Part shown: one piece after another, positions 1,794 to 46,434 of the stretch
Numbering within the stretch: position 1 is the stretch's first letter
How the letters are laid out: each line of letters opens with the position of its first letter
From: an uncultured delta proteobacterium
GTDB taxonomy: Bacteria > Myxococcota_A > Polyangia > Polyangiales > B10-G4
Direction of reading: 5' to 3'
Assembly (NCBI GenBank): GCA_963727445.1
Contig: CAVSGI010000014.1
Coordinates: 384,001 to 448,000 of the forward strand
Length of the DNA: 64,000 nt
Made by a program: the position numbers and the translations under genes
The notes under the pieces: generated by a model
What the model saw: only the letters and a program-made list of their open reading frames with translations
What the model was told of the DNA's origin: nothing
The model's database searches: none

Positions 1794-3901
1794 CCGCCCG
1801 GGTGCCCAAGGAGAAACCGCGCAAGAAGAAGCGCCGCGACGACCTCGTCGGTCGGGTCGTCGGTGGGCGTTATCAGCTGCTCTTGCGCCTGGCCTCGGGC
1901 GGGATGGGCTCGGTCTACGCGGGGCGCGCGGTGGGCGCGGGCGGCTTCGAGCGCCGGCTGGCGATCAAGCTGCTGCACGAGCACCTCGCCGAGCGCGAGA
2001 AGTTCGTCGCGATGTTCCTCGACGAGGCGCGCCTGGCGGCGAAGATCCATCACCCGAACGTCGTGTCCACCATCGACGTCTTCGAGTGGGACGAGCGCTA
2101 CTACCTGGTCATGGAGTACGTGGAGGGCCTCGAGCTCGGGCGCCTTCTGCACTCCGCGCTCCAGCAGCGGGACAAGCTGCCGGTGCGGGTGGTGCTGCGC
2201 ATCATCCTCGACGCCCTGTCCGGCCTGGTGGCGGCGCACGAGCTCACGGACAAGGACGGAAAGCCCCTCAACCTCGTCCATCGCGACATCTCTCCGCAGA
2301 ACATCCTCGTCGGCGCCGACGGCATCTCGCGCCTCACGGATTTCGGCGTCGCCAAGGCCGAAGACCGCATCCACGTGACCCAGGGCGCCGAGTTCAAGGG
2401 CAAGGTCGCTTACGCCGCGCCCGAGCAGCTCGAGCACTCGCTGGTGGAGCAGCGCTCGGACGTCTTCGCGATGGGGATCATCCTGTGGGAGACGCTCACC
2501 CAGAAGCGGCTCTTCAAGGCGAAGGACAAGCACGGCATCCGGCGGATGGTGCTCGCAGGGGACTACCCGCCGCCATCGAGCATCGACCCGTCGCTCCTGC
2601 CCTTCGACCACATCATCGAAAAGGCGATGGCGCGCGAGCTCGCCAATCGGACGCCCAGCGCTGCGGCGCTGATGCTGGAGGTCGAGGAGATCGCAGCGAC
2701 GATCGGCGGCCCCGCGAGCCCCAACGACGTGCGCAACTGGGTGCGAAGCCTGGCCGGCGAGCATCTCAAGGAGCGCGCTGACGAGCTGCGCGAAGCGGAG
2801 ACGCAGGTGCCCTACCCCTCGGAGGTGGTGAGCGTGCCGCCCTCCGCGCCGGGCAGCGGCAGGGGCGCGCCCCCGGCGGTGCCGGACCAGAGCGAGGTCG
2901 TGCCCTCGATGGGCGGCGGCGCGGCCCTCGCCGACGAGGCCGGTCCGACGCTCAGGGATCCACCCCAGCGCGGCGACGCCGTCACGCAGACGAGCAAACC
3001 TCAGCGCTCCGATCCGGCGGACGACGCACCGACCCGCCTCGCCGACCGTTCCCAGGTGGGGCTCGGCGCGGACGCGCGCGCCGACGCCGACTCCTTCGAC
3101 AACAGCGCCACGCGAAAGTACGAGCGCCCCGACTCCGGCCAGAGCGACGACGACCTGCCCCCGCTTCATCAGCTCCGAACCGACCCCAGCGACATCAGCG
3201 TCGAGCTGCTCGAGAGCGAGCCCCGCCTCGAGTCGGGGGTGGAGCGGACGGGCGGCCACTCCCGCGCCCTCGGCCAGGACCCCTTCGGCGAAGAGGACCG
3301 CAAGGCCACGACCAGCGTCATCGACGAGGTCGCCGCCCGCCACCAGCGCCTGCTGTGGGCCGGCGCGGTGGTGATGCTGCTCCTCGCCGCGGGCATCGTG
3401 GGCACGGTGATCGCGATGGCGGTCTCGGACGACGAGGCGGCGCCGGCGCCGGCGAGGATGCAGGTGGTGGAGCCGGAAGGGGGAGGGGGAACGGGAACGG
3501 AAACGGGAACGGGAGCGGGAACGGGAACGGGAACGGGAACGGGAGCGGGAACGGGAACGGGAACGGGAACGGGAGCGGGAACGGGAACGGGAACGGGAGC
3601 GGGAGCGGGAACGGGAACGGGAACGGGAACGGGAACGGGAACGGGAACGGGAGCGGGAACGGGAACGGGAACGGGAACGGGGACGGGGACGGGGACGGGA
3701 GCGGGAGTGGAGGCGGGGGCCGCGGTTACCGAACCACTTATCGAAGTGTCGATGCGGCGGCGGGCGGGGATGCGGCGAGCGACGATGCGCGTCGAGGCGA
3801 TGACGACCACGACGACGACCACCACTGAGCCCACGCCGCCGCCCACGATGGAGGCCGAGACGGCGATGGGGATGCCGGACAACCCCTACCGCGACCTCTG
3901 A
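1790..3901 (+). CDS. Membrane-anchored Ser/Thr protein kinase
   Basis: [23 protein letters not shown] and YAAPE motifs; TM segment [25 protein letters not shown]; Gly-Thr repeat tail. Confidence 0.92.
3487..3710 (+). repeat. (GGGAAC/GGGAGC/GGGGAC)n hexamer tandem array inside the kinase gene, encoding Gly-Thr/Gly-Ala repeats
   Basis: About 37 tandem hexamer units read directly. Confidence 0.95.
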
Positions 3902-7532: not shown

Positions 7533-9342
7533 ATGGCCTACGACATCTCCCGGATCCGCAACTTCTCCATCATCGCGCACATCGACCACGGCAAGAGCAC
7601 GCTGGCCGATCGCATCCTCGACGTGACGGGCGCGCTGACCGAGCGCGAAGCCAAGGAGCAGTTCCTCGACAAGATGGACCTCGAGCGCGAGCGAGGGATC
7701 ACCATCAAGGCGCAAACGGTGCGCCTCCGCTACAAGGCGGAGGACGGCGTCGAGTACCAGCTCAGCTCATCGACACGCCGGGGCACGTCGACTTCAGCTA
7801 CGAGGTGAGCCGCGTCTCTGCAGGCCTGCGAAGGAGCGCTCCTGGTGGTGGACGCGACCCAGGGCGTCGAAGCGCAGACCCTCGCCAACGTCTACCTCGC
7901 CATCGAGAACGACCTCGAGATCATCCCGGTCTTCAACAAGATCGATCTGCCGAGCGCGGACGTGGACCGAACGACGCAGGAGGTCGAGCAGGTGATCGGC
8001 CTCGACTGCGAACGAGGTCTTCCCGGTCAGCGCGAAGACCGGTGAGGGCGTCAAGGAGGTCCTCGAGGCGATTTGTCGCCGCGTGCCGCCGCCCAGGACG
8101 AACGAGGATCCGGAGGCGCCCCTGCGCGCGCTCCTCTTCGACAGCTGGTACGACCCCTACCGCGGCGCGATGATGATGGTGCGCGTGGTCGACGGCACCC
8201 TGAAGAAGGGCGACAAGGTTCGGATGATGGCCGCCAAGGCGGACTACGATGTCACCGAGCTGGGCGTGTTTGCGCCTTTTCCCGTCGCGGTGGACGAGCT
8301 CGGGCCGGGCGAGGTCGGCTTCGTGTCAGCGTCGATCAAGAGCATCCACGACACCAAGGTCGGCGACACCCTGACCCACGCGCGCAAGCCCGCCACCGCG
8401 CCGCTTCCGGGCTTCAAAGACGTCAAGCCGATGGTGTTCTGCGGGATCTTCCCCACCGACAGCGACCAGTACCCGGAGCTCCGCGACGCCCTCGACAAGC
8501 TGCACCTCAACGACGCAGCCTTCGTCTTCGAGCCGGACACCTCCGAGGCGCTGGGCTTCGGCTTTCGCTGCGGCTTCCTCGGACTGCTCCACATGGACGT
8601 GATCCAGGAGCGCCTCGAGCGCGAGTACGACCTGGACCTGATCACCACCGCGCCGAGCGTCGTGTACAAGGTGCACAAGATCGACGGCGAGGTGCTCGAG
8701 GTCGAGAACCCTTCGAAGCTCCCCGATCCGCAGTACATCCAGCACATCGAAGAGCCCTACTTCCGGGTGAGCATCCACGTCCCGGCGCAGTTCGTCGGCG
8801 CGGTGCTCAAGCTCTGCGAGGACCGCCGCGGCGAGCAGCAGGGCATCAACTACGTCACGCCCGAGCGCGTGATCATCACCTACGACCTGCCGCTGGCCGA
8901 GGTGCTCTTCGACTTCTTCGACAAGCTCAAGAGCGCGACCAAGGGCTACGCCTCGATGGACTACGAGCTGGTCGGCTACCGGCCCAACAAGCTGGTGCGC
9001 GTCGACATGCTGCTGAACGGCGACAAGGTCGACGCGCTCAGCGCCATCGTCCACAAGGACAAGGCGTACTATCTCGGGCGCGGGCTCGCGGAGAAGCTCA
9101 AGAAGATCGTTCCGCGCCAGCAGTACGAGGTCGCGATCCAGGCGGCCATCGGCAACAAGGTCATCGCCCGCGAGACGGTGCGGGCGCTCCGCAAGGACGT
9201 CACGGCGAAGTGCTACGGCGGCGACATCAGCCGAAAGCGCAAGCTCCTCGAGAAGCAGAAAGAGGGCAAGAAGCGCATGAAGAACGTGGGCAGCGTGGAG
9301 ATCCCGCAGGAAGCGTTCCACGCCATCCTCACGGTGGATTGA
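7533..9342 (+). CDS. lepA: Elongation factor 4 (LepA); split by several frameshifts at ~7765-8075
   Basis: [77 protein letters not shown], spread across frames. Confidence 0.95.
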
Positions 9343-9362: not shown

Positions 9363-11906
9363 ATGCGCCGTCTCGGCACCTGCCTTTTGGTCCTGCTCTG
9401 CCTCGCGAGCCTCGGGTTCGAGTGGGAAGGCCGGCTGGGACGTCTGAGACGCGACCTGGCGAACGGGGACGCGGCGCGGCGGCGCGAGGTGGTGCGCCTG
9501 CTCGGGAGCTACCCGGCCAGCGAGGTGGGCGACGCCATCATCGACGCCCTCGACGATCCCGACGCTGGCGTGCGCGCCGAGGCGGCCGACGCCGCCGGAC
9601 GGGTGCGCCTGCGCGAAGCGGTGCCGCGGCTCCTCGACTGGCTGGACGATTCGGACGCCGACGTGCGCACCAGCGCGGCGCGCGCCCTCGGTCGCATCGG
9701 CGACGCGCGCACGGTGACGCCGCTGGTGCGCGTCCTCGGCGATTCCAATGCGGACGTGCGTCGCGCGGCGGTGCAGGCGCTGGCGAGCATCGGCACGCCC
9801 GCGGTGGTGGTGCCGCTCCTCGGTCGCCTCGACGACACCAGCGCGACCGTGCGCATCGAAGCGGCGGAGGTGCTCGGCGCCCTCGGCGACCCGCGCGCGG
9901 TGGTGCCGCTCGTGGGGCGGGCGCGGGACGACGCGCCCGAGGTGCGAAACGCTGTCTACGCGGCCCTGGGCGAGATCGGCGACAGCCGTGGGCTCGCCGC
10001 GCTCCTGATGGGCCTTCGCGATCCGGTCGGTGACTCGCAGCTGGTGGCCATCGGCGCGCTGGGGCGTCTCGGCGCAGAGTCGGCTGTGGAGCCGCTGGTG
10101 GCGGCCCTCGCGGATCCGGATCCGCGCCACGGGCGCGCGGTGGTCGCGGCGCTCGGCTCCATCGAGGGCGAGGCCGCGACGCGCGCCGTCGTCCAGGCGC
10201 TCGCGCCGCCGCGCACCCGTGCGCTGGCCGCCGACGTGCTGGTGAGCCGCGCGCGGCGCCTCAGGCGCGAGCGCCCCGCGGAGCGCGACGCCTTCGTGAT
10301 GACGTTGGCGGAGTCGCTCTCGGCCGCCGAAAATCGCGGTGAGGCCACGGCCATCGCCAGCGTGCTGTCGCGCATCCTCGCCGACGCGCCGGTCGCGGCC
10401 GCCGCCGCGCCGCTCCTCGCGGCCCTCGACAGCGACCTCGGCAACGAGGGACAGCTCCTCACCGCGGCCGCCGCCACCGGCGCCCCCGAGGTGCTGGTCC
10501 CCATCCTCGCCCGCCTTCGCTCGGACGACGAGGGCGCGCTCGAGGCGAGCCTCGACGCCCTCGACCGCTACTTCGAGCGCGCGCCCCCGGACGGGCGCGC
10601 GGCCGACCCGCTCCTCTCCGCTTTGGGCCGCGTCCCGCACGCCCTGCGGGCGCGCGTGGTCCGCCTCCTCGGGGTGGTGGGCGCGCGACGCGCCCTGCCC
10701 GAGCTCCGCCCCCTCCTCAATCACCCCGACCCGCGCCTGCGCCGCGTGGCGGTCGAAGCGATCGGTGCCATCGGCGATCCCGAAGGCGCCGAAGCCATCC
10801 TCGCGCTCCTCGACGACCGCGACGGCCGCACGCGCTTCGAGGCCGCGCGCGCCCTCGGCGCCGCGGCCGGCCCCGACACGGTGAGCGCGCTGATCGATGC
10901 GCTCGGGCAGAGCGAGCCGACGGACCGCCACGCGGTGATCGAGGCGCTGGGCGCGGCGCTCGCGCGCCTCGCGGCGGCGGGCGCGCTCGAGGAGAGCGTC
11001 GGGGCGCGCGCGCGCGAAGCGCTCGCGGCTGCGGCGCGCGGGGATGACGATCAGCTCGCGGCGCGCGCCATCGACGCGCTCGGGCGCTGGGGCGCGCCCG
11101 AGGGCGCGGCCGACCTCGCTGCGTTGATGACGCATCCGGACCCGCCGCGGCGCCGCGCAGCGGCGCACGCGCTCGGGGGCATCGACGTGGACGCGAGCCG
11201 CGAGGCGCTGCGCGGTGCGCTCGACGGCGACGACGAGGCGCTGCGCGCGGCTGCGGCGGTCGCGCTCGGGACCATCGGCACGCGTCAGGACGTGGCGCCG
11301 ATGATCGCGCTCGCCGAGCGCTCGCGCTGGCCGACGCAGGGAGCGGCCTCTTTCGCGCTCGCGCGCCTCGCGCGGCGCGGAGTCGCCGAAGCACAGACGC
11401 TCGGGCCGGCGCTCTGCGCGCTCTCTGCGAAGCGGGGACCCTATGTGCGCGCCAACGTCGCGACCGCGCTCGCGGCGCTGGGCCTGGGCGCATGCCCGGA
11501 AGGGCCGGCGCCCACCGACTGGCTCGACAACCGGCGCGCAGCGCCGGTGCAGGCGGCGGCGGCGCGCTGGCTGGCGGCGGCAGCCGCGGCTGGAAACGCC
11601 GATCCCGAAGAGGCGCGACGTGCGCTCGACGCGTGTATGGACCGCGCGCTCTCCGACGAGGTCTCGGCCACCTGCGCCGCTCCCGAGCTCCGCCCCCTGG
11701 ACGCCGAGGCCGACATCTACGCCTGGTCGGCCGACGGGACCCGGCTGCTGCGCGATCGGCTGGTGGCCCTCCGGCTCTCCGACGGATCGGTGATGCTGGG
11801 GCGCACCGACGACAACGGCCACGTGCGCCTGTCGCGCGTGCCAGCCGGGCGCCTGGTCCTCGACGACCCGGCCGCGACCCCCCTCGAGCCAGCCCTGCAC
11901 GACTGA
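9363..11906 (+). CDS. HEAT/PBS-lyase repeat protein with N-terminal signal/anchor
   Basis: Many LxDxDxxVRxxAAxALG repeats; hydrophobic N-terminus MRRLGTCLLVLLCLASLG. Confidence 0.85.
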   Translation: MRRLGTCLLVLLCLASLGFEWEGRLGRLRRDLANGDAARRREVVRLLGSYPASEVGDAIIDALDDPDAGVRAEAADAAGRVRLREAVPRLLDWLDDSDADVRTSAARALGRIGDARTVTPLVRVLGDSNADVRRAAVQALASIGTPAVVVPLLGRLDDTSATVRIEAAEVLGALGDPRAVVPLVGRARDDAPEVRNAVYAALGEIGDSRGLAALLMGLRDPVGDSQLVAIGALGRLGAESAVEPLVAALADPDPRHGRAVVAALGSIEGEAATRAVVQALAPPRTRALAADVLVSRARRLRRERPAERDAFVMTLAESLSAAENRGEATAIASVLSRILADAPVAAAAAPLLAALDSDLGNEGQLLTAAAATGAPEVLVPILARLRSDDEGALEASLDALDRYFERAPPDGRAADPLLSALGRVPHALRARVVRLLGVVGARRALPELRPLLNHPDPRLRRVAVEAIGAIGDPEGAEAILALLDDRDGRTRFEAARALGAAAGPDTVSALIDALGQSEPTDRHAVIEALGAALARLAAAGALEESVGARAREALAAAARGDDDQLAARAIDALGRWGAPEGAADLAALMTHPDPPRRRAAAHALGGIDVDASREALRGALDGDDEALRAAAAVALGTIGTRQDVAPMIALAERSRWPTQGAASFALARLARRGVAEAQTLGPALCALSAKRGPYVRANVATALAALGLGACPEGPAPTDWLDNRRAAPVQAAAARWLAAAAAAGNADPEEARRALDACMDRALSDEVSATCAAPELRPLDAEADIYAWSADGTRLLRDRLVALRLSDGSVMLGRTDDNGHVRLSRVPAGRLVLDDPAATPLEPALHD

Positions 11907-12205
11907 ACGGGAACGGGAACGGGAACGGGAACGGGAACGGGAACGGGAACGGGACTGGGAACGGGACTGGGAACGGGAATGGGAACGGGAACGGGAACGG
12001 GAACGGGAACGGGAACGGGAACGGGAACGGGAGCGGGAACGGGAATGGGAACGGGAACGGGAACGGGAACGGGACTGGGAACGGGACTGGGACTGGGAAC
12101 GGGACTGGGAACGGGACTGGGAACGGGAACGGGAACGGGAACGGGAACGGGAACGGGAACGGGAACGGGAACGGGAACGGGAACGGGAACGGGAACGGGA
12201 ACGGG
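11905..12205 (+). repeat. (GGGAAC)n tandem array, ~50 units, with GGGACT/GGGAAT/GGGAGC variants
   Basis: Read directly; begins at the HEAT gene stop codon. Confidence 0.97.
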
Positions 12206-12221
12206 TTGAATCCGTTTGATC

Positions 12222-12290
12222 GTGTTTCTTGGTCATCGCTGAGACCCCTTCTTGGGTGGGAAAGGGGTCTCAGCGATGACCAAGAAACAC
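12222..12290. repeat. Perfect 29-bp inverted repeat covering the RBS and ATG of four-helix-bundle gene 1
   Basis: GTGTTTCTTGGTCATCGCTGAGACCCCTT, 11-nt loop, AAGGGGTCTCAGCGATGACCAAGAAACAC. Confidence 0.95.
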
Positions 12291-12617
12291 TCTGATCGGA
12301 TGATTCATCACAACTTGCGGGTCTGGCAGCGCGCACATTCGCTCGTGGGGCTCGTGTACGCGAACTTGCCGAAGGATGCGGAGCTTCGATCGCAAGTGAA
12401 GCGAGCTTCGACCTCTGTCGGCGCGAACATCGCCGAAGGGTGCACGCAAAGCTCGAGAGCGATGCGCCGCAAGCATTACGAGATCGCCCGCGGGTCGGCT
12501 GTGGAGACGGTTGCTTGCTTCGAACTGGCCGAAGCCACCGGCGATCGCCTCCCCGTCGAGGAGGTCCGGAGCCACGGCGCCGCCATCGCGGCGATGCTCA
12601 CGAAGATGCTGCGGTGA
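12276..12617 (+). CDS. Four helix bundle protein (23S rRNA IVS-protein/Avd-like family)
   Basis: LRVWQRA...LRSQVKRASTSVGANIAEG...IARGSAVE family signature; alternative start at 12300. Confidence 0.9.
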   Translation: MTKKHSDRMIHHNLRVWQRAHSLVGLVYANLPKDAELRSQVKRASTSVGANIAEGCTQSSRAMRRKHYEIARGSAVETVACFELAEATGDRLPVEEVRSHGAAIAAMLTKMLR

Positions 12618-12622
12618 ACATA

Positions 12623-12658
12623 CGAGAGCCCGGAGGGTTTTCGCCCTCCGGGCTCTCG
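12623..12658. terminator. 15-bp perfect hairpin between the convergent four-helix genes (possible bidirectional terminator or processing site)
   Basis: CGAGAGCCCGGAGGG-TTTTCG-CCCTCCGGGCTCTCG; no U-tract on either side. Confidence 0.6.
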
Positions 12659-12661
12659 CGC

Positions 12662-12988
12662 TCAGCCGTGGATCATCCGCCAGAGCGAAGCGGCGGCATG
12701 GTCGAAGCGGTCGTCGGCTGACGCGCTCTCCATCGCGGTGATGTAGCCCCAGGCGACCGCGATGCGGAGTGCCTGCTTGGCTTCGCGCGCCGAGTTCATG
12801 GCGACCGAGAGGTGCTCCGCTCGGTGCCCCTTGCGTGCCCACTCCCCTTCGGCTGCATTGAGCGCCGCGGAGCTCGCCGCGCGCCTCAGCTGCGAGGCGA
12901 GGTCGCGATCTTGGGGTTGGAATCTTTCGGCCAGAGGTCGGGTGACCTCGATGGCTTGGAGGAGGATGTCGTGGACCAGCTTGCTCAT
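12662..12988 (-). CDS. Four helix bundle protein (23S rRNA IVS-protein/Avd-like family)
   Basis: DRDLASQLRRAASSAALNAAEG...AMNSARE...AVAWGY; AAAGGAG RBS upstream. Confidence 0.9.
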   Translation of the reverse strand: MSKLVHDILLQAIEVTRPLAERFQPQDRDLASQLRRAASSAALNAAEGEWARKGHRAEHLSVAMNSAREAKQALRIAVAWGYITAMESASADDRFDHAAASLWRMIHG

Positions 12989-12990
12989 GA

Positions 12991-13068
12991 GGTGTCGCTC
13001 CTTTCGCCCGCGTCAGGGGGCTTTGCCCGCCCGAAGGGCCCCCTGACGCGGGCGAAAGGAGCGGCACC
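12991..13068. repeat. 31-bp inverted repeat (1 mismatch) covering the RBS of four-helix-bundle gene 2
   Basis: GGTGTCGCTCCTTTCGCCCGCGTCAGGGGGC, 16-nt loop, GCCCCCTGACGCGGGCGAAAGGAGCGGCACC. Confidence 0.95.
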
Positions 13069-13116
13069 GACAGCCCATGAAACAGACCCGAGCGCAGCGA
13101 AGGGGGCCGAGACGAC

Positions 13117-13230
13117 GGGAACGGGAACGGGAACGGGAACGGGAATGGGAGCGGGAACGGGAGCGGGAGCGGGAATGGGAGTGGGAATGGGAGCGGGAGC
13201 GGGAGCGGGAACGGGAATGGGAATGGGAGT
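13117..13230 (+). repeat. (GGGAAC/GGGAGC/GGGAAT/GGGAGT)n tandem array, ~19 units
   Basis: Read directly; same orientation as the 11905-12205 array. Confidence 0.95.
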
Positions 13231-13296
13231 GGAATTCACGGCCTCCTCGACACTCCCCGGCCGGCGCGTTAAGTAAGCCGCCCACTCGGTCCCGCC

Positions 13297-14746
13297 ATGC
13301 GCTACGTCGTCCAGACCTTCGGTTGTCAGATGAACGTGCACGACTCTCGTCGCATGGAGGAGGTGCTGCGCGGCGAGGGGCATGCGCCCGCCGAGGACGG
13401 CTCGGTGGCCGACCTGGTCATCGTCAACACCTGCTCGATCCGCGAAAAGGCCGAGCACAAGCTGATGAGCCTCCTCGGGACGCTCCGCCCGTGGAAGGAG
13501 TCCAAGCGGGGCGCGGTGCTCGCCGTCGCCGGCTGCGTGGCGCAGCAGGAGGGCGAGCGGCTGCTGACGAAGGCGCCCTACGTCGACGTGGTGATCGGGC
13601 CGGACAACATCCCCGAGCTCCCGCGGCTGATCCGCGCGGCGCGGAACGGCGCGCCGCCGGTGGCCCGCACCGTCTTCGACGACGACGATCCGCGCTTCCT
13701 GGTCGCGCGCCCGCGCGCCGAGGAGCCCGAGGTCACCGCCTTCGTGACCGTCATGAAGGGCTGCGACGAGCGCTGCACCTATTGCATCGTCCCCCACACG
13801 CGCGGCGACGAGCGCTACCGGCCGGCTGGCGAGATCGTCGACGAGATCGCGCGCCTCGTCGAAGGCGGCGTGCGCGAGGTGACGCTCCTCGGGCAGACGG
13901 TGAACTCCTGGCATCCGCCCGACGAACAGGTGCCCTCCGAATCCGCCGGACGCCGAAGCCGAGCTCCCCTCGCGCTTCGCCTCGACGAGCCGCTTCGCGG
14001 AGCTGCTTCACCGAATCGCCAGCGAGGTGCCGGCGCTGGCGCGGCTTCGCTACACCTCGCCGCATCCGCGGCACGTGACGCCCGCGCTTCTTCGCGCCCA
14101 CGCAGAGCTCGAGGTGATGCCCGCCCACGTGCACCTGCCCGTGCAGTCGGGCTCGGACCGGGTGCTGAGGCGCATGCTCCGCCGCTACACGCGCTCGCTC
14201 TACGTCGATCGCGCCCGCGCGCTGATGGACGCGCGCCCCGGCCTCACCCTCGCCACCGACATCATCGTGGGCTTCCCCGGTGAGACCGAAGAGGACTTCC
14301 GCGAGACGCTGAGCCTGGTGGAGGAGGTGGGCTTCGTCTCGGCCTTCTGCTTCAAGTACTCGCCGCGCCCGTATACCCCGGCCCTCAAGCTCGGCGACGA
14401 CATCCCCGAAGAGGTCAAGGCCGAGCGCCTCGCCCGCCTCTTCGAAGCGGTGGAGAAGATCCAGCGCCGCCACCTGGACGCGCTGGTCGGCACCCGACAG
14501 CACGTGCTCGTCGAAGGGCTCACGCCGCACGACAAGAACGGCGACGGGCGCTTCACCGGTCGCACCACGCGGAACGAGATCGTGCATCTGCTCGCGCCGG
14601 CGGAGCTCGACCCGACGGGAACCATCGTCGAAGTGAACGTCGACGCTGCCAACAAGCACAGCCTCCTCGGCTCGATGGACGGTGGCGTCCCGACGCGGCG
14701 CTCGCGGAAGACGCGCGCCTCCCTGCCGATCCTGGCGGGGGCGTGA
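13297..14746 (+). CDS. miaB: tRNA-2-methylthio-N6-dimethylallyladenosine synthase MiaB (frameshift at ~13950-13995)
   Basis: TFGCQMNVHDS, NTCSIREKAE, radical SAM CDERCTYC, HLPVQSGS, DIIVGFPGETEEDF, TRAM tail. Confidence 0.93.
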
Positions 14747-46250: not shown

Positions 46251-46434
46251 ACGGGGACGGTCTACACTTTTCAACTTTCGCCACGCAGCCCGGGTTTCAT
46301 CCACATGCGCGCGGCCCAGCCGAAAGTTGAAAAGTGTAGACCGTCCCCGTCAAGCGAGCCGAAAGTTGAAAAGTGTAGACCGTCCCCGTCAAGCGAGCCG
46401 AAAGTTGAAAAGTGTAGACCGTCCCCATCAAGCG
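46251..46434. repeat. REP-like cluster: three tandem 39-bp units plus one inverted 30-bp copy
   Basis: AGCCGAAAGTTGAAAAGTGTAGACCGTCCCCGTCAAGCG at 46318, 46357 and 46396 (last with 1 change); reverse-complement copy at 46251-46280. Confidence 0.9.

Follow-up and report, generated by a model that had tools for sequence, protein, structure and literature searches.

The window analysed here is a 64-kb stretch of DNA (positions 384,001 to 448,000 of contig CAVSGI010000014.1, assembly GCA_963727445.1) from an uncultured delta proteobacterium of the order Polyangiales, and it carries, between a host HEAT-repeat gene and miaB, a cassette of two small convergent genes, here gene A and gene B, each with a long hairpin and a tandem hexamer array upstream (Table 1). 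The original prediction, made from the letters of the window, gave the order of parts correctly as array, 29-bp hairpin, gene A on the plus strand, 15-bp hairpin, gene B on the minus strand, 31-bp hairpin and array. Its description of the cassette as symmetric did not hold, as both arrays read GGGAAC on the plus strand and so are direct repeats rather than mirror images, and the claim that both genes have the same 5' architecture was likewise not confirmed, the upstream array in the gene's own sense being (GGGAAC)n for gene A and (GTTCCC)n for gene B. The setting was as predicted. The flanking lepA and miaB genes were identified by Pfam, and the HEAT-repeat label was read from the translation. 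No rRNA lies nearby, the window having no Rfam match at the gathering score (generic hairpin matches only, all below that score, and no Gut-1), and the one reverse transcriptase and four Y1 transposases of this genome sit on other contigs. Both lepA and miaB are split across two frames (window 7533-9342 and 13297-14746), most likely by assembly indels.

The long hairpins lie over the gene starts. The 3' arm of hairpin A contains a purine-rich ribosome-binding site (12262-12267) and the start of the gene A coding sequence, from the ATG at 12276 through the first five codons, and hairpin B spans the ribosome-binding site of gene B (12998-13003), its stem ending 2 nt short of the gene B ATG. Folding compared with shuffled sequence gave z = -10.6 for hairpin A, -6.2 for the middle hairpin and -6.2 for hairpin B. 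The middle hairpin is without a U-tract and was not scored as a terminator; a stem resembling it is present in 5/5 copies of the cassette in the genome. A sigma-70 promoter scan gave no match. The CCGAAGG word of the hairpin B loop is retained in all four cassette copies that still have hairpin B, and the GCGCAGC word at 13092 is also on the gene B template strand; the leader motif that ends in this word has two more matches in the genome, both inside unrelated coding sequence.

Both open reading frames belong to the four-helix-bundle family to which they had been assigned, with 74.6 and 44.1 bits to Pfam PF05635 (cut-off 33.8) and 70.9 and 48.3 bits to TIGR02436 (cut-off 24), and they are divergent from each other as described, with 36% identity across 58 aligned residues. 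A structure model of the gene B protein has four helices (predicted local distance difference test score, pLDDT, 96.7), with a template-modelling (TM) score of 0.88 to Xcc0516 (2GSC) and to 2RLD; BT_0352 was likewise matched (TM up to 0.88), and matches to Avd of diversity-generating retroelements (DGRs) had TM 0.83-0.85 at 11-12% sequence identity. A weak hit of gene B to the NCBIfam model AnkD (E 0.073; 12 bits, with the cut-off at 500) was rejected as noise. PF05635 proteins are described from rRNA intervening sequences (PMC4990558; bioRxiv 10.1101/2024.02.27.582315) and as Avd-like (PMC10053308), and the family appears in a figure legend on CRISPR-linked domains (PMC10910872).

Table 1. 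Parts of the cassette and its two junctions, in window coordinates.
Feature	Position	Strand	Description
Host HEAT-repeat gene stop codon	11904..11906	+	left junction; overlaps first array unit
Left hexamer array, 50.2 copies	11905-12205	+	in register: 39 GGGAAC, 7 GGGACT, 2 GGGAAT, 1 GGGAGC
Hairpin A	12222-12250/12262-12290	.	perfect 29-bp stem (100%), 11-nt loop
Gene A	12276-12617	+	four-helix-bundle protein of 113 amino acids, isoelectric point 10.0
Middle hairpin	12623-12637/12644-12658	.	15 bp, separates the stop codons of genes A and B
Gene B	12662-12988	-	four-helix-bundle protein of 108 amino acids, isoelectric point 8.3, subfamily other than that of gene A
Hairpin B	12991-13021/13038-13068	.	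31-bp stem (97%), 16-nt loop
CCGAAGG (C-GAA-G triloop) in hairpin B loop	13031..13037	+	equals gene B template strand
Leader motif ending GCGCAGC (C-GCA-G triloop)	13085..13098	+	adjoins right array; conserved in 5/5 cassettes
Right hexamer array, 19.0 copies	13115-13228	+	orientation as left array
Native miaB leader, intact	13230..13296	+	right junction; alignable to the empty site of the congener

Dispersed copies and empty sites

The genome contains 16 matches to the family, namely an A-B pair at five sites and six single genes. The pair cores at the other sites are 81-88% identical to the window copy, and the sites themselves are unrelated. The arms of hairpin A are identical among the window copy and those on contigs C6 and C27, and hairpin B has been deleted in the second copy on C14. 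Frameshifts in this C14 copy and in the gene on C11 may stem from the assembly, as may the loss of single bases from hairpin A in two copies, since lepA and miaB are also split; none of these was counted as decay. Between the diverged copies, the ratio of nonsynonymous to synonymous substitution rates (dN/dS) was 0.03-0.09 for gene A and 0.08-0.15 for gene B, at dS of 0.5-1.4, and within-genome paralogue groups of the order gave dN/dS of 0.02-0.37 in 30 of 30 groups. By this sequence-level measure the dispersed copies are shown to be under purifying selection and to keep functional proteins.

Hexamer arrays of at least eight copies number 128 in the genome, with 67 of them within called genes and 109 away from family genes. 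As had been proposed from the window, they flank family genes elsewhere: an array lies no more than 400 nt upstream in 14 of the 16 family genes compared with 51 of 7101 called genes, the latter being crude gene calls, and in the other two family genes an extra 51-bp array intervenes, with the hexamer array 526 and 775 nt away. Hexamer arrays in this genome are therefore not special by themselves; their position upstream of family genes is.

At the HEAT-miaB junction, the site is empty in the one congener, G001, where the HEAT stop directly precedes a leader that can be aligned to window 13230-13296. No family gene was present at any of the other miaB loci (29/29), and the HEAT-miaB order was kept by G001 only. 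The rplQ site of the congener is empty as well, as are the 126 bp that can be seen of its C27 site; orthologues of the purM and C25 sites were not found in G001. With regard to a target-site duplication, the empty HEAT-miaB site of G001 has a single 8-letter word that shares 6 and 5 letters with the two junctions, in a congener that is distant (flank protein 71% identical). The empty orthologous sites, together with five dispersed copies under purifying selection, uphold the predicted mobility of the cassette, and we consider it highly probable that the cassette is mobile. The probability that it instead arose by misassembly of a repeat-rich draft genome is practically nil. The apparent indel errors, including those in lepA and miaB, might suggest such an origin, but the copies are diverged and under constraint, short variant sequences from an independent DNA sequencing run covered pieces of gene B and of hairpin A together with gene A, and the artefact is refuted by independent genomes, a like design being found in 22 genomes or contigs.

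Other repeats were seen beside the cassettes or apart from them. A remnant unit (G000:C8:368203-368430, locus L420) consists of a hexamer array, a 23-bp stem over an ATG and approximately nine codons of the four-helix-bundle protein, and nothing more. A 51-bp unit containing two small palindromes forms tandem arrays (C6:406060-406410, C27:290410-291010, C4:23180-23550 and C10:249890-250500), which in two cassettes separate hairpin B from the right array and elsewhere stand free. Another unit, ~90 bp long and bearing GNA mini-hairpins, is present in direct orientation in both arrays of the C27 cassette (289150-289400 and 291180-291270), and also in the left array of the C6 cassette (404860-404960). 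Within the window, a 37-unit GGGAAC array (3487-3706) lies inside a protein gene and is translated as Gly-Thr repeats, which may possibly have been seeded by cassette footprints; pure hexamer runs inside called genes are on the coding strand in 21 of 21 cases. An abundant palindromic repeat family is represented at window 46251-46434 (154 exact genome matches to a 19-mer and 51 to a related 22-mer), and the two palindromic repeat families each flank a Y1 transposase gene (C9 at ~567 kb and C10 at ~487.6 kb), in the way that the palindromic REPINs flank RAYT transposase genes.

Convergent pairs across the order

The family is present in 106 of 201 genomes of the order, patchily, with individual genomes having anywhere from none to over 30 matches. 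The loci analysed (249 genes in 62 genomes or contigs) were top-scoring ones, being neither random nor complete. Of 64 family neighbours no more than 700 bp apart, 57 were convergent (22 genomes or contigs), with 4 divergent and 3 tandem. Arrays bound the convergent pair at both ends in 31 cases, and 26 were without one or both, many of these at contig ends. The two arrays were direct in 28 of the 31 (12 genomes) and inverted in none, the other three pairs, all in genome G111, having unrelated units. Middle arrays were found in eight pairs, with seven following the direction of the flanks (units read by eye), and in G023 two pairs share one array. Each gene lineage largely keeps one array polarity, in single genes as in pairs, and the arrays of the two partners are complementary.

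A family tree (109 columns, 93 rows), in which only well-supported shallow groups were used, shows gene A kin paired with the MSKLV group here, and in G001 kin of gene A are paired with the MQNFQ group, whose kin occur as single genes in this genome. Genomes G009, G022, G023 and G031 have independent pairs of their own. The tree shows that pairs formed repeatedly from different subfamilies, and thus the unit is array plus structured leader plus gene, as originally proposed; partners that differ in subfamily between genomes, and kin of paired genes that occur alone, also bear out the proposal that two such units were joined tail to tail. Units of two subfamilies have been joined many times as an opposed pair with direct bounding arrays, and the pairs have then spread as one piece.

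Two pairs were found beyond the order, one of them divergent and the other convergent, both with direct arrays as judged by eye. Among 166 further loci, 161 were distant, mostly from Acidobacteriota where named, and only 5, close relatives, were paired; the flanks of the 157 measurable loci favoured inverted pairing in 84 and direct in 9. Single genes of the order were divided by lineage into classic (n=13; 10 inverted, 0 direct, 3 unclear) and derived (12 direct, 8 inverted, 4 unclear). Viral contigs gave seven distant relatives, none of them convergent.

Arrays start no more than 120 nt from a same-strand host stop codon in 69 of 143 cases. The orientation of pairs relative to host transcription, by a crude coding test, gave no call at both ends in 22 of 57, and the resolved cases show all combinations. 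One intergenic site in 30 congeners of genus g9 holds a pair in one genome, a single gene in two and a gap of at most 43 bp in nine, the rest having other short inserts. Units are thus shown to be inserted between host genes, often right behind the host stop codon, and to come and go at orthologous sites. Arrays without a gene were also seen, and at one g9 site these had cassette polarity in 9 of 24 congeners and opposite polarity in none, compared with 0 of 192 control windows; some gene-less arrays of g9 continue from the end of an open reading frame. Genus g9 also has a palindromic insert of ~100 bp that lacks a gene and has many GNA triloops; it is found repeatedly at the intergenic sites of cassettes and at some cassette edges (loci L381, L392, L402, L406, L495, L497 and L500), and is perhaps a non-autonomous partner.

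Such gathering of other palindromic inserts at the same hot spots would also be expected if these were host-useful accessory genes, for defence, stress or addiction, that are passively shuffled at repeat-rich sites, with the arrays being ordinary microsatellites. That most hexamer arrays of the genome (109 of the 128) are away from family genes fits this account, and purifying selection is compatible with a host benefit. However, passive shuffling does not sit well with the concentration of arrays directly upstream of family genes, with a polarity that is fixed by lineage, with two-array pairs that are direct and never inverted, or with the patchy copy number among genomes, and we judge it improbable.

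Leader stems, triloops and candidate partner enzymes

Stems scoring at least 17 were found upstream of 79 of 223 family genes (17 of 77 lineages) compared with 0 of 300 control genes. In hairpin A, 15 of 31 consensus pairs are compensated among seven homologues, and the 28-pair main stem is without G-U. Mismatches within stems, read on the mRNA strand, were A-C at 19 and G-U at 9 unique positions (6 and 2 lineages, respectively); a strong strand bias, suggested by an initial count of 20 against 4, shrank to these figures and is weak. Triloops of the form C-GNA-G with a stem of at least 4 were counted in one 260-nt leader window per lineage (n=76). On the template strand there were 37, compared with 3.5 in shuffled sequence, 5.1 upstream of control genes and 7.0 in intergenic sequence, and on the sense strand 12, compared with 2.7, 3.8 and 8.3, respectively. 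Loops of RNA type were not enriched in the same 76 lineage windows, with a single UNCG and GNRA at or below expectation. The C-GNA-G triloops occur in 24 of 40 derived lineages compared with 2 of 36 others. GNA mini-hairpins are described as very stable in DNA and as marking single-stranded DNA signals, including those of phage G4, ssiA and the N4 promoters (PMC13037366). The template-strand triloops suggest a single-stranded DNA stage.

These data bear on the alternative that the cassette is an RNA-level element, an intervening sequence of rRNA type that has moved into mRNA, with its RNA supplied by host read-through, stems cut by RNase III, the element's own RNA bound by the Avd-like protein, and spread dependent on a reverse transcriptase acting in trans. 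Stems of 29-31 bp over ribosome-binding sites would suit such an element, as would the fold shared with Avd of DGR ribonucleoproteins and the many arrays that begin shortly after a same-strand host stop; in Coxiella, RNase III cuts the 28-bp stem of an intervening sequence that carries a family gene (PMC4990558). We regard this alternative as unlikely, in that the stem does not enclose the gene, the covarying main stem is without G-U and mRNA-strand mismatches are more often A-C than G-U, and neither UNCG nor GNRA loops are enriched. Nor did a reverse transcriptase turn up in all of five cassette-rich genomes. RVT_1 was not found in one of them, G119 (99% complete, four pairs fetched), and the only RVT_1 match of this genome is on contig C1 (G000:C1:31930-32544, L379), a reverse transcriptase which we take from its appearance to be retron-like and which has no array or hairpin nearby as judged by eye. 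Of the originally suggested "mobile or RNA-regulated element", mobility therefore stands, and RNA regulation is weakened by the absence of G-U covariation, the lack of a G-U preference and the DNA-type triloops of the template strand.

DNA-type hairpins are suitable substrates for HUH transposases, and the cassette could be a non-autonomous passenger of such an enzyme (RAYT or IS200-type) that recognises single-stranded hairpins. Two RAYT-like Y1 genes in this genome are bordered by hexamer arrays (G000:C10:985537-986232 and C9:168556-169239). PF01797 (Y1) has four matches here, on contigs C9 and C10, none within a cassette, and it was not found in three of the five cassette-rich genomes by a family search that a distant HUH protein could escape. 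A query with the RAYT-like subfamily had matches in 27 of 201 genomes (G106, unpublished, is included in this tally only) and none in pair-rich genomes G009, G022, G111, G119, G089, G109, G141 and G045. In several genomes of the order the subfamily is multi-copy (at least 14), mostly without arrays, and upstream arrays occur at 4 of 28 of its loci. A RAYT-like partner was therefore rejected as the general mover, and we hold the passenger explanation to be very improbable.

A proposed transposase-less mobile cassette and its relation to known systems

Taken as a whole, the reading of the cassette as a small mobile gene element without a transposase, with a mechanism at the DNA level, has in our view about an even chance of being correct. 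It is likely that the arrays would serve as substrates for joining and deletion by host recombination or slippage, which would account for their direct orientation, the middle arrays, tandem cassettes that share an array and the gene-less arrays left behind. It is also likely that the long stem would mask the ribosome-binding site in read-through transcripts of the host and so keep the gene silent. By homology to Xcc0516, a known homopentamer, and to Avd, the protein is predicted to be a pentamer. More speculatively, it may bind its own leader as single-stranded DNA through the template-strand C-GNA-G mini-hairpins, and such binding might favour survival or recombination of its own copy during DNA uptake or transfer; with one gene on each strand, either strand or either direction of insertion would serve.

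Several observations weigh against this reading. The empty site of the window cassette in G001 is without an array and has just one unit-like word, and hexamer arrays are common in these genomes, where they also adjoin two Y1 transposase genes and occur inside proteins. The locus sample is of top hits rather than random, and the pairs of G111 have unlike array units at their two ends. At the g9 site where gene-less arrays share cassette polarity, upstream synteny was confirmed in just 6 of 24 genomes, and at a second and a third g9 site the gene-less arrays were 5 opposite and 1 same, and 2 opposite and 3 same, respectively (29 genomes each). Within a cassette, the left and right arrays resemble each other no more than arrays taken from different cassettes do (the cassette's own partner array was best in 2 of 25; mean 0.140 compared with 0.143), which gives no sign of array duplication or of integration as a circle. 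The split of lineages into derived and classic was made by hand, and the gene A lineage, among the 36 'others', is mostly without template-strand triloops. Template switching can keep stems perfect without selection.

Several known systems have features in common with the cassette. The 23S rRNA intervening sequences with an open reading frame, such as that of Coxiella helix 45 with S23p (PMC4990558), share the PF05635 protein, the sporadic and selfish-looking mode of insertion and a long near-perfect stem. In contrast, the cassette is outside rRNA and flanked by protein genes, its stem is over the gene start rather than enclosing the gene, no long inverted pair spans its genes, its arrays are direct, and it has two genes and many copies per genome. 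Its proteins are under purifying selection, whereas the Coxiella open reading frame is reported as decaying (PMC4990558). With DGR Avd (PDB 4DWL, 8UB7; PMC10053308) there is a common four-helix fold, and protein A is basic, but sequence identity is 11-12% and the cassette has no adjoining reverse transcriptase. REPIN/RAYT systems and the insertion sequences IS200/IS605 are likewise intergenic, often behind stop codons, with possible single-stranded DNA hairpins and gene-less remnants. In IS200, a hairpin hides the ribosome-binding site from read-through. Unlike these systems, the cassette has no HUH motif protein, a Y1 partner was not found in all carriers, and the ends are tandem hexamer arrays. 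Its hairpins and DNA-type loops are on opposite strands at the two ends. Terminal inverted repeats, as in insertion sequences or miniature inverted-repeat transposable elements, are absent. No integron attC site was recognised by eye, and no attC model search was made. The phage G4 origin, ssiA and the N4 virion polymerase promoter (PMC13037366) have in common with the cassette CCGAAGG and GCGNAGC words on one strand, upstream of a gene and on the template strand of that gene, and differ in that the cassette has no primase, Rep or polymerase gene. By the features tested, the cassette fits none of intervening sequence, DGR, insertion sequence or REPIN-RAYT; it would sit among selfish inserts that carry a PF05635 protein, in a paired, direct-array form. 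A literature search, covering mostly papers available without subscription, found none on repeat-bounded PF05635 cassettes.

Structures have been solved for the large family PF05635, yet it has no assigned function, and the cassette offers a concrete and testable setting for it, with well-defined cis sequences (the leader stem, the GNA triloops and the arrays) and with empty and filled alleles. The strong selection on protein in dispersed copies is the expectation for a self-serving factor, and the strand and register of the loops predict DNA, on the template strand, as the target of the protein. If the protein helps its own DNA to move, this would be a principle of mobility without nuclease or polymerase, and would bear on the spread of rRNA intervening sequences, on the origin of DGR Avd and on the source of hexamer repeats in genomes and proteins. 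A tentative and somewhat doubtful extension is that the cassette represents a new class, an ambisense transposase-less element whose pentameric protein recognises hairpins of its own single-stranded DNA and promotes insertion through hexamer arrays, with gene-less footprints seeding the Gly-Thr and Thr-Glu repeats that are common in proteins of these bacteria. Were this true, PF05635 as a whole would gain a function, as perhaps would the ancestor of DGR Avd.

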